Positions 303 through 48,393 of a stretch of DNA of 64,000 bases are shown here, piece by piece. A program made the translations under genes and the position numbers. Position 1 is the first letter of the stretch. Every line of letters starts with the position of its first letter. Origin of the DNA: a virus (taxonomy: Duplodnaviria > Heunggongvirae > Uroviricota > Caudoviricetes); IMG/VR virus record IMGVR_UViG_3300029305_003072. The stretch is one strand, 5' to 3'. The notes beneath the pieces are model-generated. The model did no database searches, was not told the origin of the DNA, and saw nothing but the letters and a program-made list of their open reading frames with translations.

Positions 303-647
303 TTATCCTGCAGCGTTATCACTAAATGACTCAGTTAATGGGTCATCATCATTCGTTTGCAACTATGCCATAACTGTTTCATATTTTATACCGCCTTGAG
401 TATTTTCTTTTTCTGCTTTTCGGTAATAGAAGCCTTGGCCGACAGCATATGCTCCCCAAGGAGCCATAGCCATTGCAGTTAACCAAGGTAATTCACCAAA
501 ATATTGATTTGAAATACATACAAAAGCGAGTATAATAAATGCAAGAGTCACAACCCATAAGAGAAGTGACTCTTGAATCAATAATCTTTTAGAGAATTCA
601 GTGTCTTTTTTAGGTGCGGGCTTTTGAGCAGTTTTGTTTTTATTCAT
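303..647 (-). CDS. Holin-like membrane protein, 114 aa if TAG=Gln
   Basis: Two hydrophobic segments, directly downstream of the endolysin. TAG 363-365 read-through gives an acidic tail ending at TAA 303-305. Confidence 0.6.
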
Positions 648-649
648 AA

Positions 650-3175
650 TTAAATTTTCTTAGTATAGTTAAGTGAAATCCAACCGGCGCCAGATTTCAA
701 TTTGCCCCAACCAGACTATTCTCCTACAATAGTATAAACTTGACCTTTTTTAACCTGAGTATTAATACGATACTAAACGCCTGCTCCCGCACGAACATTT
801 AATACATCAGCAACAATTTTAACTAAATAAGATTCAAACTCCGGTACTTTTGGAGCTGCTATACTATCTCCGTTATAAGGTAATAAATTAGTAGCATAAG
901 TCACACCAGTAATATCTCCAGAAGCTAAAGTAGAAAATACGACTTTACCGTCATCACGGATTTCACGCACATATAATTTCTTACCAAATAACCAAGAAGG
1001 AATGGAAGCACCAGAAGAATATTTTGCTCCATTTTTTAAAGATACTGCCTAACCTAATTGTAAATCATTTACAGCCTCAATGACTTCGTTTTTCTTTGGC
1101 TGTTCAGGATAAATAACTTCTCCTTTGGAATTGAAGACATAATATCCAATACCAGCTTTATCACAAGCATTTTTTGCATTTTGTAATTGACTATATGCTC
1201 CAATTTGACTTTTTGAATCTTCCCATGACTTTCTTACACGATACATTTCATTAGAGGGTGCGGCCGCAGGTACATCGTCCTTTTTATCGGGCTCAGCTGG
1301 TTCGATTACAGATACTTTAGTTCCCATTAAATCAGCAACATCTTGACGAGCAGTTTCCATTGATTTACCAAATTTAGGGAACCAATGATTAATATCACCA
1401 TGATTGGAGCCTAATCCTAACTTATAAGAATCTGCATGACATAAGATAGTTGGAACGTCAATACCATTAACACGGACGGTACCAAAAGGATCAATATCAA
1501 ACATATCACATAAATATGCAGTAATTTCACATGCCTCTTTATAGACTTTATCAAAATAGGTTTTATCAGTTAATCCATCTTCACAAATTTCAAACTGAAT
1601 CCAACCACTATTACAAGACCCTTTAGAACCACTACCACAACCCCAAGGCTTATAATCCCAAGGCATTGTCTATATAGTAGCAACAGTTCCATCAGCTAAT
1701 TTACCGATCCAACAATTTAATCCTGCTTGACGTTCAATATGATTCCAATCATTTTTATATTGATTTATACCTAATAATGCTAACATTTCCTCTTTATCAG
1801 AAGCATTGTCACTTGGTTGCACATAACGCTTTAAATTAGGGTTATTAGCACCAGTAGAATGCCATAAAACGCCTTTAACAGTCATTTTACTTGTTCCTTT
1901 ATAACAAGTGCTTTGAGTTTGCATGCATACAAGGGGTTTATTAGAAGCAGAATACTTCATTTTTCCGTTTCCTCCTTCTTTTGGGATTTCAATTTTAACT
2001 TCTTCTTTAACAGCATATTTGTCATAATATTTTTGACCATATCCTGCTCTCTTGTTTTGTGCGGCCTCGCTTTGATCGGCGGGACGCTCAAATTTTAATA
2101 ATACTGCATTAGAAGCTTCTAAAACAGATTTTGCTGTTTGTAAAGTAGTCCATACAGATTTGTAGCTAGTTGACAATTGGTGACATAGGAATTCCATCTG
2201 AGTAGTACCATCACCAATAGATTTTTTATTGGCTTGGAAATAAGTGAGCATTTCTTGCTTCAAACTCCAATAGGTCCATTGAGCCAAACCATAACCAGCT
2301 TTATCATTAATAAAGTTAGTATAAATTCCTGCATCTACTGCGGCAGTATATTCAGCATCACTCATACCAAGAGATTTTTCATAGGTCTGCTGTAAATTGC
2401 AAGGACGTAAACCAGATTCAGCAAAAAGATTTCCCATTAAACCAGCAATACCATAATCATTTAAGCCTTTAGATTTAAAATAATTCCACATTACTTTTTC
2501 ATCAATGGCATTTGTATTAACCTTAGAGGTATCAATGATTATAGCATTTTCTTCTTTCTCTTCTTTTGCTACTGGATATACAATTTCCCCCTTTGAATTA
2601 AAAACATAATAACCAACACCAGCTTTATCACAAGTCTTCTTTGCATTATCTAAAATGCTATATGCACCTAATTGAGATTTACTATCAGCCCAAGTTTTTC
2701 TTACTCGGTATAATTCTTTTTGAGGAGTAGCGGTTGTTACTGCGCCTCCAAAAGTAGTGCGTTTAGCTTGCGCTTGACCATACCAAAAAGATTTAGTAGT
2801 TCTAGTATCCACATGGACGAAGTGACCATCTTTATCAGTTTCATACAAACCAATGCCTAAAATACCAATAGATTCAGCATATTTGGCAATTTCGGCAGGT
2901 TTTACTCCTGTAATATAAATATCTGCAGCTTGGCCTTTCATATGACGAGAGCCAGTTGCTCCACCAACATTTTTATTATGTGTAGTACAACGATAAGCAG
3001 AACTTACATTTACAGGCTTGCCAAAATGGTCTCTGATTTTTTGTAAATATTCCACTAATTTGTCATCAACTAAAGTTTTAGAACAGCAACCAGATCCATG
3101 ACAGTCAAATTCAGTAGACTTAAAATTTGTGCTTAATTTAGTTGCAATTCCTTTTGTGTAAGTTTTTACAGCCAT
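650..3175 (-). CDS. Modular endolysin (peptidase M15, tail-lysozyme-like, amidase_2, C-terminal SH3b), 841 aa with 4 in-frame TAGs
   Basis: Track ORFs 1670-3196, 1049-1666 and 773-970 share one frame, separated by TAGs at 1670, 1049, 773 and 716. Read-through gives GKLADGTVATI-Q-TMPW (amidase) and VLNVRAGAGV-Q-YRI...GE-Q-SGWGKLKSGAGWISL (SH3b). Confidence 0.9.
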
Positions 3176-41159: not shown

Positions 41160-41774
41160 ATATTGAAGGTGAGGGGCCTATCGGTCGGTCGTAACTGCTA
41201 CCACCAGACTTCCGCTACGAGGGTTACCCTCAAAATGGAGCTTATTCTCTTGTTCTTCGCCCAAGAAGCAATGGTAGATTGTCTCGGACTTCTCAAGAGG
41301 AGAGTTTTCACATTTCCTTTACCTTACATATATATTATATCATATTTTTTTATAAAAATCAAAAAAGATTTTTGGATTAGAAAAAACAATGATTAAGGCT
41401 AATTTTAGGGCTTAGGTCGTGTCAGATTTCCTGTTACACGATTGCCACTTAGTCCCTACTGTAAAACCTTAATCGTACCCTCAGTATGAGGCGGTCTTGA
41501 GGAATTTCTCCCAGTGCACAAGGCAAGACCGGTTTAGATGGGATGCGGGGCGTACTATTCTTCGCACATAGTACCCCCGCTGTGTCGCTTTCTTTATTAG
41601 GAACTTAACGACAGAATTCCTCTTTCTTGATTGGCCTAACCAAGAAATCCGTTGCTCTTTAAGATTCTCCAACGACTGAACTACGAGATGCTTGCGCACT
41701 ATGCTACTTAGGCCCTTTCACATAGATTGCCATTTACCGTCAGCGATGCCAATGAACTTTCTCACACTTGACCC

Positions 41775-43091: not shown

Positions 43092-43148
43092 TTTTATCTT
43101 ACATATATATTATATCAAAAATTTTTATAAAAATCAATTTTCGATACT

Positions 43149-43245
43149 TGGCTGGGGTGGAGGGATTCGAACCCCCACATCACGGGTCAGAGCCGTGCTT
43201 CCTGGAGTTTTAGAGACTCTTTTCTTACCATTAGAATACACCCCA
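43149..43245 (-). tRNA. 97-nt Gln-type tRNA with two anticodon arms (CUA and CUG)
   Basis: TGGGGTG..D-arm..GAGT-CTCTAAA-ACTC..CACGG-CTCTGAC-CCGTG..T-arm..CACCCCA-G-CCA. Confidence 0.8.
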
Positions 43246-43320
43246 TGGCGGGGGCGGTCAGAATCGAACTGACATCTGCGATTTTAGAGACCGCGGTCCT
43301 AACCTTTGAACGACACCCCA
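43246..43320 (-). tRNA. Amber suppressor tRNA(CUA), Gln-type
   Basis: GCGGT-CT-CTA-AA-ATCGC; U1, G73 and TGGGGTG acceptor resemble the Gln tRNAs in this window. Confidence 0.93.
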
Positions 43321-43323
43321 ATA

Positions 43324-43731
43324 TCATTCTTCAGCCTGGAATTCAGATAAGGGTAAGCTAAATACTTCAAATTCAGTATATTTATTCCCAACTGTGATTG
43401 TATTAGTAGCAGAAATTGCTTCACAAGGAATTAAATAAGTTTTATCATTCCCTGTTACAATAAATACATAATCACAAGAAGTGTTATCAAATGGTCGAAT
43501 TTTAGAGCCTTTACTGGTACCCCCACAGTTTTTTAACATTACTTCATAGGAAATACCATTTCTACTATATCGACTGGTTTTAACTTGAACTCTCTACAAG
43601 CCACCATTAAAATCAGCAATTAAATCATATTTTTGAGTATCATTAAGCGGAATCGCAACTGTGATACCATGACTGGTAAAATATTCAACGGCTTTACCAA
43701 AACCTAAATTTCCCTAAATTGACTAATACAT
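43324..43731 (-). CDS. PD-(D/E)XK free-standing endonuclease with 3 in-frame TAGs
   Basis: MY-Q-SI-Q-GNLGFGKAVEYF..IPLNDTQKYDLIADFNGGL-Q-RVQVKTS. TAGs at 43723, 43714 and 43594. Paralogous to 46242 and 53993. Confidence 0.85.
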
Positions 43732-43979: not shown

Positions 43980-44009
43980 TTTTCTTATATTATTATTATA
44001 GCAAAAATT

Positions 44010-44204
44010 TTATGAATTGTCAAGGAATCGCTTCTCGTCTCGGGCGATTTTTCTTTTAGTCCGTTGTTGCTCATAAATATAGGTTTTTAATCTTTTACAT
44101 CCAGAACAACCATTTCGATTTGGACAATCCCAACAACCATCTGTGTCATACCAATAGTACCAAGGTGGCTGAGGACGCGGCTTACGGCGTTTAGCACGAT
44201 TCAT
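44010..44204 (-). CDS. Small Cys-rich basic protein
   Basis: CWDCPNRNGCSGCK. Confidence 0.55.
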   Translation of the reverse strand: MNRAKRRKPRPQPPWYYWYDTDGCWDCPNRNGCSGCKRLKTYIYEQQRTKRKIARDEKRFLDNS

Positions 44205-46984: not shown

Positions 46985-47123
46985 TGGTGAGCCGCCTTGG
47001 ACTTGAACCAAGATGCCAACTAAGGCGCCGGATTTTAAGTCCGATTTTACTTGCTGTTAGCGTTTTAGACCAAGACACTATTTCATTCCGGTCCGGTGCG
47101 TCTACCAATTCCGCCAACGGCTC
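46985..47123 (-). tRNA. tRNA-Leu(TAA) interrupted by an approximately 52-nt CAGCAA-type insert (copy 6)
   Basis: Insert 47042-47093 in the 5' anticodon strand contains GTGTCTT-loop-AAAACGC-TAACAGCAA. Confidence 0.85.
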
Positions 47124-47194
47124 ATATTTAGAATCTTGAAAAGTTTGCTGACCTTCGCCATACACTCTGTTTAACCTTCACCTATATTCAACCA

Positions 47195-47945
47195 ATGGGG
47201 AGACACGGTCTGAGCTTCGGGGAGCGACCCCTAACTTCCGGCCCCAGTCTTTCGACCAAGTCCCATGCAGGAATGATTGCCTGCAACTTTCACCCGCCAT
47301 TCAGAAATATTTGATAATAACCAACTAAATCATCAAGCATTAATGTTCTTTGCGATTGGGCTACTCGTACCACAACCTCGTCTTATAGGCCGGTCACCCG
47401 GTCATCAACGCAAACTTCCTTATTGGTCTACCATGGTTTGGTACAGTCACCAGCTAAACCCTAACATGGCTTATTCCCCACAGGGGCGTCTATTGCGGAA
47501 GCGACGAGACAGTGTTTTTAGATGCGGTTATGATTGCACACCCCTCCATCCAGGACCTCAGTTCTGAGGCGGAACTCACGCTTCACAACGCAAGCCCTCT
47601 ACCTATTGCCGGCTATCGTCGACAAAATTATTTCGGACTCCTGGCGCCCGCAGGCAGGATTGGGTTCTCGGCACGATGGGATTCGCTCTTCACCGAGATG
47701 CAAACTTTTCAAGGTTCAAACTGATATTAGTCGAAATCGCAACCACCAGGCTTATTCAGCGGAGGGTTATCAGTTATCGGTTGCTTAAAAAGGTTAAGAT
47801 TTTAGGAGAAACAAGTGTCAAAGAAACAGTCCTTCAACAGACCCTCTTACCGGCCGCCTTATCTTTCTCACTTATCGGCTTAAGCCACGAACCCGGCGCA
47901 CTTGGAATCATCATATATCCTCGAAAGGGAAGTGTACGCTTCTCT
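47195..47945 (-). ncRNA. GOLLD-like large ncRNA (about 750 nt)
   Basis: Non-coding block with its own promoter inside a tRNA array. Segments GGCAATAGGT, GGGTGTGCAA, TGGTGACT, GTAGAC..AAGTTTGC..GACCGGGTGAC.GGCC, GTAGCCCA, TCTGAATG..GGTGAAAGTTG and AAGCTCAGAC match GOLLD as I recall it; not searched. Confidence 0.7.
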
Positions 47946-48172: not shown

Positions 48173-48248
48173 TGGCTGGGGATAAAGGATTCGAACCTTT
48201 AACCATCAGAGTCAGAGTCTGCCGCGCTACCAATTGCGCCAATCCCCA
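48173..48248 (-). tRNA. tRNA-Gln(CTG)
   Basis: Canonical; U1-A72, G73. Confidence 0.95.
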
Positions 48249-48317
48249 ATATTGCGGTTTTTATTGTCGATAACCGCAAACGACTTCAATTACTTTTCCC
48301 AATCAGCGCCTAGCGCC

Positions 48318-48393
48318 TGGCTGGGGATAGTGGATTCGAACCACTACACACACGGGGTCAAAGCCCGCGGAACTGCCTTTATTCTAATCCCCA
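48318..48393 (-). tRNA. tRNA-Gln(TTG)
   Basis: Canonical; U1-A72, G73. Confidence 0.93.

Follow-up and report, generated by a model that had tools for sequence, protein, structure and literature searches.

A phage amber suppressor tRNA with a second, glutamine-type anticodon arm in its variable region: a candidate identity element for the host charging enzyme

Why should an amber suppressor tRNA of a phage carry a second arm of the anticodon type, with a glutamine anticodon in its loop? The question is raised by a 97-nt gene at positions 43245..43149 (minus strand) of the window, which is the whole 64,000-nt stretch of Caudoviricetes DNA analysed here (IMG/VR record IMGVR_UViG_3300029305_003072). 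The window comes from a large uncultivated phage and contains 41 tRNA genes, all on the minus strand, together with a ROOL RNA. Stop-codon recoding in phages is well documented, and the charging of their suppressor tRNAs by synthetases of standard-code hosts is an acknowledged open question; it was left open for host GlnRS and TrpRS by Borges et al. (preprint). A spare anticodon loop built into the suppressor itself, if this reading of it is true, would be a simple and testable answer to the charging question.

The 97-nt gene (43149..43245, minus strand) encodes its CCA end and was identified as a suppressor tRNA by ARAGORN, by Rfam RF00005, and by a five-helix consensus with its relatives. 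ARAGORN drew a tRNA cloverleaf with the anticodon cta at position 33. The Rfam tRNA model scored 54.2 bits against a gathering score of 29 and was matched in full (model 1–71), with the CUG hairpin aligned as an insertion in the variable region. All five helices were present in the RNAfold minimum-energy structure; the z-score of −0.16 is uninformative, as is usual for tRNAs. The acceptor stem is UGGGGUG/CACCCCA (U1-A72), followed by G73 and CCA, and the D arm, UUCU-AAUGGUA-AGAA, is preceded by UA and followed by A26. The first arm, AGAGU-CUCUAAA-ACUCC (43204..43220, minus strand), is the putative decoding arm, with CUA at 43213..43211 and a stem of 4 bp plus an A27.C43 mismatch. Its loop, C-U-CUA-A-A at 43215..43209, has 7 nt, U33, and a purine at position 37. 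A purine linker, AGGAAG (43198..43203, minus strand), conserved in the subtype to which the window copy belongs, separates it from the second arm, CACGG-CUCUGAC-CCGUG (43181..43197, minus strand), which has CUG at 43190..43188 and five Watson-Crick pairs and occupies the variable-arm position. With the CUG arm taken as the anticodon arm, the 3' linker AUGU (43177..43180, minus strand) would act as a variable loop of 4 nt; the T arm is GGGGG-UUCGAAU-CCCUC. The pairs A47-U67 and G48.A66, drawn by ARAGORN, may extend the second stem; in a sibling gene on contig L275, A.G is possible instead at this position, as read from the alignment of the window subtype. A 7-bp class-II-like second arm would fit these extension pairs (A-U and G.A, or A.G in L275).

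The sequence-only reading of this locus had described two anticodon-type arms, CUA and CUG, in a Gln-type body that could fold either as a class-II-like suppressor or as tRNA-Gln(CUG) with an extra hairpin. The layout was borne out by the sequence, ARAGORN, Rfam, and RNAfold, and both folds proved feasible, since a canonical cloverleaf is left when either arm is taken away. Removal of the first arm in silico gave a 74-nt tRNA-Gln(CUG) whose anticodon stem has five perfect pairs and whose variable loop has 4 nt, and removal of the second gave a 75-nt tRNA(CUA) with a 4-bp stem and the A.C mismatch; ARAGORN accepted both. The second arm has the loop CUCUGAC, exactly the anticodon loop found in the phage's own tRNA-Gln(CUG) at 48173-48248. 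This ordinary gene lies with an ordinary tRNA-Gln(UUG) at 48173..48393 (minus strand), and their anticodon loops are CUCUGAC and CUUUGAC, respectively.

The 97-nt gene adjoins a standard suppressor, as had also been noticed from the letters. This canonical 75-nt tRNA(CUA) at 43246..43320 (minus strand) lies directly upstream with no spacer and has a U1.C72 mismatch and G73. A gene for a PD-(D/E)XK endonuclease at 43324..43731 (minus strand; PF11645, E 3.6e-15 with TAG as Q) contains three in-frame TAG codons and is transcribed just ahead of both suppressors. A perfect sigma-70 consensus promoter, TTGACA-17-TATAAT with TG, was found by pattern match at 43995..44023 (minus strand) and probably drives the endonuclease gene and both suppressors as one unit. 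A promoter-like site, TTGATT-17-TATAAT with TG, likewise a pattern match, is located at 43109..43137 (minus strand), immediately downstream of the 97-nt tRNA and at the start of the next unit; on contig L038, a similar promoter-like site precedes the copy of the two-armed tRNA. TAG is a sense codon in this phage, in at least three genes of the window. Pfam domains were matched with TAG read as Q in an 848-aa multi-domain lysin (four TAG), a PIN/PhoH-like protein (one), and the PDDEXK_5 nuclease (three). Adjacent long frames of the window split by a single stop numbered 10 for TAG, 7 for TAA, and 5 for TGA; six-frame ORF totals under alternative genetic codes were not discriminating. No synthetase was found among the scanned window ORFs of at least 330 aa, a set drawn up with a vault-protein ORF and a few overlapping opposite-strand frames left out. 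Megablast of 12 kb against phage records returned no close relative, only tRNA-sized matches.

Several other RNA features of the window were recorded. A full-length ROOL RNA lies inside the tRNA array at 47130-47721 (minus strand; 312.6 bits, model 1-574). It is adjoined by a 136-nt match to the tRNA model at 46988-47123 (minus strand; 33.3 bits), uncalled by ARAGORN, which implies a putative tRNA with a large insertion. Between two tRNA-Lys genes, a partial match to OLE RNA was found at 41391-41474 (minus strand; 53.5 bits against 50), covering model positions 439-592 only. The tRNA-Cys(GCA) at 40022-40107 (minus strand), found also on L029 and L259, measures 84–86 nt; its variable arm is long and its D loop class-II-like, which is unusual for tRNA-Cys.

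Several known identities were considered for the 97-nt gene and rejected. tRNA-Pyl is the name that ARAGORN gives to any CUA anticodon; the variable region measures 27 nt here vs. 3 nt in tRNA-Pyl, and no pyl-like gene turned up among the large window ORFs scanned. For an intron-containing tRNA, a group I intron of hundreds of nucleotides or a bulge-helix-bulge motif at 37/38 was expected; either "insert" measures only 22–23 nt, and no ribozyme family of Rfam matched in 39000-60000. A weak match to YrlA RNA (E 0.019, 21.7 bits against 69) runs across the junction of the two suppressor tRNAs and is due to chance. Assignment to class II (Ser, Leu, or Tyr) disagrees with the D region, 25 nt before the anticodon stem vs. 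27–28 nt in class-II-like CUA tRNAs, with the Gln-like body, and with an extra loop that has 7 nt and is anticodon-like. The 97-nt tRNA fits a class characterised by a spare cognate loop: a hairpin between the anticodon and T arms, the cognate sense anticodon at its apex, and a covarying stem.

The family of Gln-like long tRNA(CUA) genes was collected by two scans of viral contigs with a pattern limited to a CUA loop, a long gap, and a T loop, and by one metagenome and one genome scan. The extra-arm hairpin was centred on CUG or UUG, both glutamine anticodons, in 37 of 37 distinct genes. In the same hairpin test, none of 10 class-II-like tRNA(CUA) genes from the same scans and 16 of 148 Leu, Ser, and Tyr tRNAs from the same loci were positive. 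The spare loops take the forms CUCUGAC, CUCUGAA, UUCUGAG, CUUUGAA, CCUUGAA, a GCUGA pentaloop, and a UUGA tetraloop, nearly always with A after the triplet. In a gapless alignment of the 17-nt hairpin windows, the U and G of the triplet were invariant. The two loop-closing pairs were formed in all 28 distinct sequences, with CG/GC/UA/AU exchanges, and the covariation score was 0.441 vs. 0.179 in shuffles, none of 500 shuffles reaching the observed value. These data indicate that the two-arm feature is far beyond chance and recurs with covariation in dozens of independent contigs.

The window copy belongs to a long subtype, for which RNAalifold on nine sequences recovered five helices; in the second arm, every one of the five pairs was compensated and none was broken. 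Second-arm stems of this subtype include CACGG/CCGUG, UACGG/CCGUA, CUACC/GGUAG, CUAGGG/CCCUAG, and CAGGA/UCCUG, and the decoding loop CUCUAAA is invariant except for one relative with CUCUAAC. The five-helix architecture was found in the independent contigs L038, L275, L282, L288, L298, L033, and L274-L280. Short-type members of the family have spare-arm stems of 2–3 bp, some with loops of 3–5 nt (CUG triloop, UUGA tetraloop). Many short-type loops allow pairing of position 32 with 38 and of 33 with 37 (U.G, U-A), which leaves a CUG triloop; the anticodon loop bound by GlnRS is reported to have this shape (Rould et al. 1991).

Standard tRNA finders under-count the two-armed suppressors. ARAGORN labelled the gene on L033 "Phe(aaa)" and skipped the L274 group, that is, the two-armed suppressor at L274:2666-2765 with a 6-bp second stem and its identical copies on L277-L280. 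On L275 (JAEIGA010681906.1), a two-armed tRNA at 476-573 (plus strand) lies 150 nt upstream of a copy of the window type; its CUA-arm loop is CUCUAAC, and its second arm, CGCGA-UCUUAAC-UCGUG, can be read as UUA (ochre) or CUU (Lys) and contains no Gln anticodon. It is either an exception to the glutamine rule or a decaying paralogue. Beside another two-armed suppressor, L002 carries a 92-nt tRNA at 1713-1804 (minus strand) in which the anticodon loop is CCUGAAA (C33) and the extra arm is long; it is Ser(UGA) according to ARAGORN, yet its body looks Gln-like. Two Bathyarchaeota MAGs (L285, L297) contain archaeal tRNA-like genes in which a CUCUAAA loop is followed by an intron-like insert and which ARAGORN does not call in no-intron mode; they are possibly a CUA-anticodon tRNA of the archaeon, unrelated to the phage family.

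The arrangement recurs for two other amino acids. In long tRNA(UCA) opal suppressors, the extra-arm loop was (G/C)UCCAAA, the anticodon loop of tRNA-Trp, in 9 of 11 genes, both exceptions being Sec-like. The tRNAs with the Trp loop measure 93–100 nt and are located on the viral contigs L068, L092, L098, L105, L110, L116, L128, L131, and L144; that of L098 has a 6-bp extra-arm stem with the exact loop CUCCAAA and is mislabelled by ARAGORN. Among long tRNA-Ile(UAU) genes, a GAU-centred extra-arm loop was present in 6 of 9. Those on the viral contigs L210, L223, L225, L236, and L254 measure 88–95 nt and have loops such as CAGAUUA and UAGAUGA, GAU being the usual Ile anticodon. The CUA, UCA, and UAU tRNAs share an anticodon that the host synthetase does not expect. 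The sole factor common to the Gln, Trp, and Ile cases is that the spare loop is the anticodon normally read by the cognate synthetase. An initiator-like tRNA(CAU) of 88 nt with C1.A72 (L054:5587-5674, minus strand) also has a CAU-containing loop in its extra arm; this may be due to chance, as two other long initiator-like tRNAs have no such loop.

A weak 1-72 pair and G73 are glutamine identity elements, G36 contributes to binding and recognition by GlnRS, and mutation of an identity element can cost up to 10^5-fold of activity (PMC9976931). The 97-nt tRNA has the acceptor set of E. coli GlnRS recognition, namely the weak U1-A72, G2-C71, G3-C70, and G73. Of the 35 tabulated family members, 32 have a weak or mismatched 1-72 pair (U-A, A-U, U.C, U.U, A.C, U.G), two have G.U, and one has C-G; N73 is G in 29. 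[quoted passage not shown] In the anticodon, the decoding arm reads C34-U35-A36 and has lost the G36 of the Y34-U35-G36 set, and the second arm supplies C-U-G in the identical loop CUCUGAC. In experiments of others, 28 of 29 phage tRNA(CUA) tested inserted glutamine, spare-arm status aside (PMC12636597).

Hosts were assigned through MAG bins, in which the binning of short phage contigs is unreliable. A GlnRS match was found in three of the eight bins with family members, including both bins with the window subtype (Acutalibacteraceae and Oscillospiraceae, each encoding GlnRS and having no GatB match) and one Eubacteriales bin. The other five had no GlnRS match, and GatB was present in all three of those that were tested. 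Unless the binning is wrong, GlnRS cannot be the sole reader of the spare loop; the reader in some hosts may be a non-discriminating GluRS, or the bins may be wrong.

On balance, we consider it probable that decoding falls to the CUA arm and that the spare loop serves the glutamine-charging enzyme of the host as an identity element, compensating for the change of G36 to A36. TAG is read as glutamine in this phage, for which the 97-nt gene would then encode a working amber suppressor with glutamine identity. The CUA arm, joined to the D stem in the normal way, would be the arm used on the ribosome, and the second hairpin would be a deliberate copy of the tRNA-Gln(CUG) anticodon arm placed in the variable-arm position. 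The spare arm would offer C/U-U-G-A to the anticodon-binding domain of GlnRS or, in hosts without GlnRS, to that of a non-discriminating GluRS; the real anticodon has lost one such element, and the spare loop would supply the replacement. We infer both the reading of the spare loop by a synthetase and the route by which the enzyme would reach it. A role in amino-acid identity is suggested by the comparative data, in which the Trp loop of UGA suppressors and the Ile loop of tRNA-Ile(UAU) occupy the same site, by the glutamine marks of the acceptor ends, and by the CUG triloop that many short-type loops can form.

In the full-size subtype, the spare arm might come within reach of the synthetase if the two arms exchanged places beneath the D stem; after charging, the tRNA would return to the CUA-stacked form for decoding. 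Such a swap is conceivable because the spare arm has the size of an anticodon arm and is followed by a normal variable loop, and because the D stem UUCU/AGAA is weak. The stronger form of this idea is a two-state tRNA: in a charging fold, the CUG arm would lie beneath the D stem and be read by GlnRS, and in a decoding fold the CUA arm would lie there. The rule behind it would be that CUA/Gln, UCA/Trp, and UAU/Ile phage tRNAs carry a spare cognate anticodon loop. We regard the two-state form as possible, and rather doubtful.

Several observations speak against the identity-element reading. GlnRS is a class I enzyme that approaches the tRNA from the D-loop, inner side of the L, and the variable arm points to the solvent; in the complex, this arm would be reachable only via the postulated rearrangement. 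The 2–3 bp arms of the short type are geometrically unable to replace a full anticodon arm or to swap with it. The spare arm is dispensable for suppression in general, as a plain 75-nt CUA suppressor adjoins the gene. Position 10 is U and not the G10 of E. coli tRNA-Gln, the second-arm loop of L275:476-573, UCUUAAC, is not that of glutamine, and five of the eight MAG bins are without a GlnRS match.

The last observation also bears on a different possibility, that the spare loop is read by something other than the charging synthetase, such as a modification enzyme, an amidotransferase, or a phage protein that times suppression: bins without GlnRS, three of them with GatB, would need a reader other than GlnRS. 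We consider this unlikely, as no candidate protein was linked to the 97-nt gene in the window and amino-acid identity accounts for the Gln/Trp/Ile parallel better than a single modification pathway would; in E. coli, position 37 is modified differently in tRNA-Gln, tRNA-Trp, and tRNA-Ile. A further alternative is dual decoding, in which the tRNA has two folds, both arms serve as anticodons on the ribosome, and one glutamine tRNA reads CAG as well as UAG. The canonical cloverleaf left after removal of either arm, the perfect 5-bp/7-nt CUG arm followed by a 4-nt variable loop, a weak D stem (UUCU/AGAA) that might ease rearrangement, and the L275 sibling, in which the second arm UCUUAAC is readable with UUA as an ochre anticodon, are all consistent with it. 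It is nevertheless quite unlikely: most spare arms of the family have 2–3 bp and cannot reach the decoding centre, yet the triplet is kept, the phage has ordinary tRNA-Gln(CUG) and tRNA-Gln(UUG) genes, and a hairpin of 23 nt at position 26/27 would probably be sterically hindered in the ribosomal A site.

The spare loop might also be a decoy or shield against a host factor aimed at the anticodon loops of tRNA-Gln, for example an anticodon nuclease or a toxin, and absorb the attack. In its favour, the window is an island of tRNAs and RNA repair, and a nick in the variable-arm loop would spare the tRNA body. Such a decoy is very unlikely, since it accounts neither for the match between loop and amino acid (Gln for CUA, Trp for UCA, Ile for UAU) nor for the attachment of spare loops to deviant-anticodon tRNAs instead of ordinary ones; we know of no nuclease specific for Gln, Trp, and Ile anticodons. 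That the second arm is a neutral relic, a recombination intermediate, or an assembly chimera, that is, a functionless duplicate of an anticodon arm, has a probability close to nil. The arms do resemble a local duplication, and the gene adjoins another suppressor, but independent assemblies, dozens of them and from different studies, show the same architecture, the stems are fully compensated and the triplet is invariant, and the design has arisen in parallel for Trp and Ile; we therefore rejected a chimera, a recombination intermediate, and a decaying duplicate alike. A recombination intermediate between suppressor and Gln tRNAs had been put forward in the sequence-only reading. Absence from related genomes together with no expression had been named there as refuting; the gene was found in related genomes, in independent assemblies. 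The design is conserved across many phage lineages with the loop kept and the stem compensated, which argues against an intermediate. The same reading had offered a conformationally switchable regulator of TAG read-through as a second option. A switch between conformations is a possibility for the long subtype; no evidence pointed to regulation of read-through, and the comparative data on Trp loops in UGA suppressors and Ile loops in tRNA-Ile(UAU) lead to amino-acid identity.

If the spare loop is an identity element, the questions of which amino acid and which codon are separated within a single tRNA, and this for three different class I synthetases. A two-state tRNA, if true, would offer a natural way around the chief obstacle to a change of the genetic code. 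Spare arms could also guide the design of efficient or orthogonal suppressor tRNAs for genetic-code expansion.

The closest known relatives are the tRNA-Sup(CUA) genes of the "code 15" phages, which read TAG as glutamine (crAss-like, Lak, Agate, and other phages, including Phass-1, OQ749652). They share with the window phage the CUA anticodon, the Gln-type acceptor, and the location in a tRNA array, and these phages, like the window phage, have in-frame TAG in late genes. In Phass-1, we found the same tandem, a 72–75-nt suppressor followed by one of 88–91 nt with the extra-arm loop CUCUGAA; the window copy is longer, its second arm being full-size, with 5 bp and a 7-nt loop, in an extra region of 27 nt. 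The extra arm and its Gln loop are not mentioned in PMC10607447, 10.1101/2021.08.26.457843, PMC12636597, or PMC10879173, where the suppressors are treated as plain, and no description of a spare arm was found in full-text literature on phage suppressors and tRNA identity, subscription journals lying outside this scope. The spare-arm design thus seems to be undescribed.

Among cellular tRNAs, those of class II (Ser, Leu, and bacterial Tyr) and tRNA-Sec have, like the 97-nt tRNA, a stem-loop between positions 45 and 46, and in the Ser and Tyr systems the long variable arm is read by the synthetase. Class II arms are recognised by shape and orientation and have 3–5-nt loops without an anticodon-like sequence, whereas the two-armed tRNA combines a Gln-type body with a conserved loop sequence; the YUG loop was absent from the class-II-like CUA tRNAs (n = 10). 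The E. coli supE (glnV44) tRNA-Gln(CUA) resembles the 97-nt tRNA in the change of CUG to CUA in the anticodon of a glutamine tRNA and is still charged by GlnRS (PMC9976931, PMC12636597). It has 75 nt, belongs to class I, lacks a spare arm, and is recognised more weakly owing to the lost G36, whereas the 97-nt tRNA retains a CUG loop elsewhere in the molecule. Hairpin copies of a cognate anticodon loop are also found in the thrS mRNA operator, in mRNA elements of yeast HisRS and AspRS, and in viral tRNA-like structures, and anticodon-loop mimics in mRNAs are bound by the anticodon-binding domain of the synthetase (PMC9976931). Those mimics serve translation control of the mRNA or charging of viral genomes, whereas in the 97-nt tRNA the mimic is located inside a decoding tRNA, beside a different functional anticodon.
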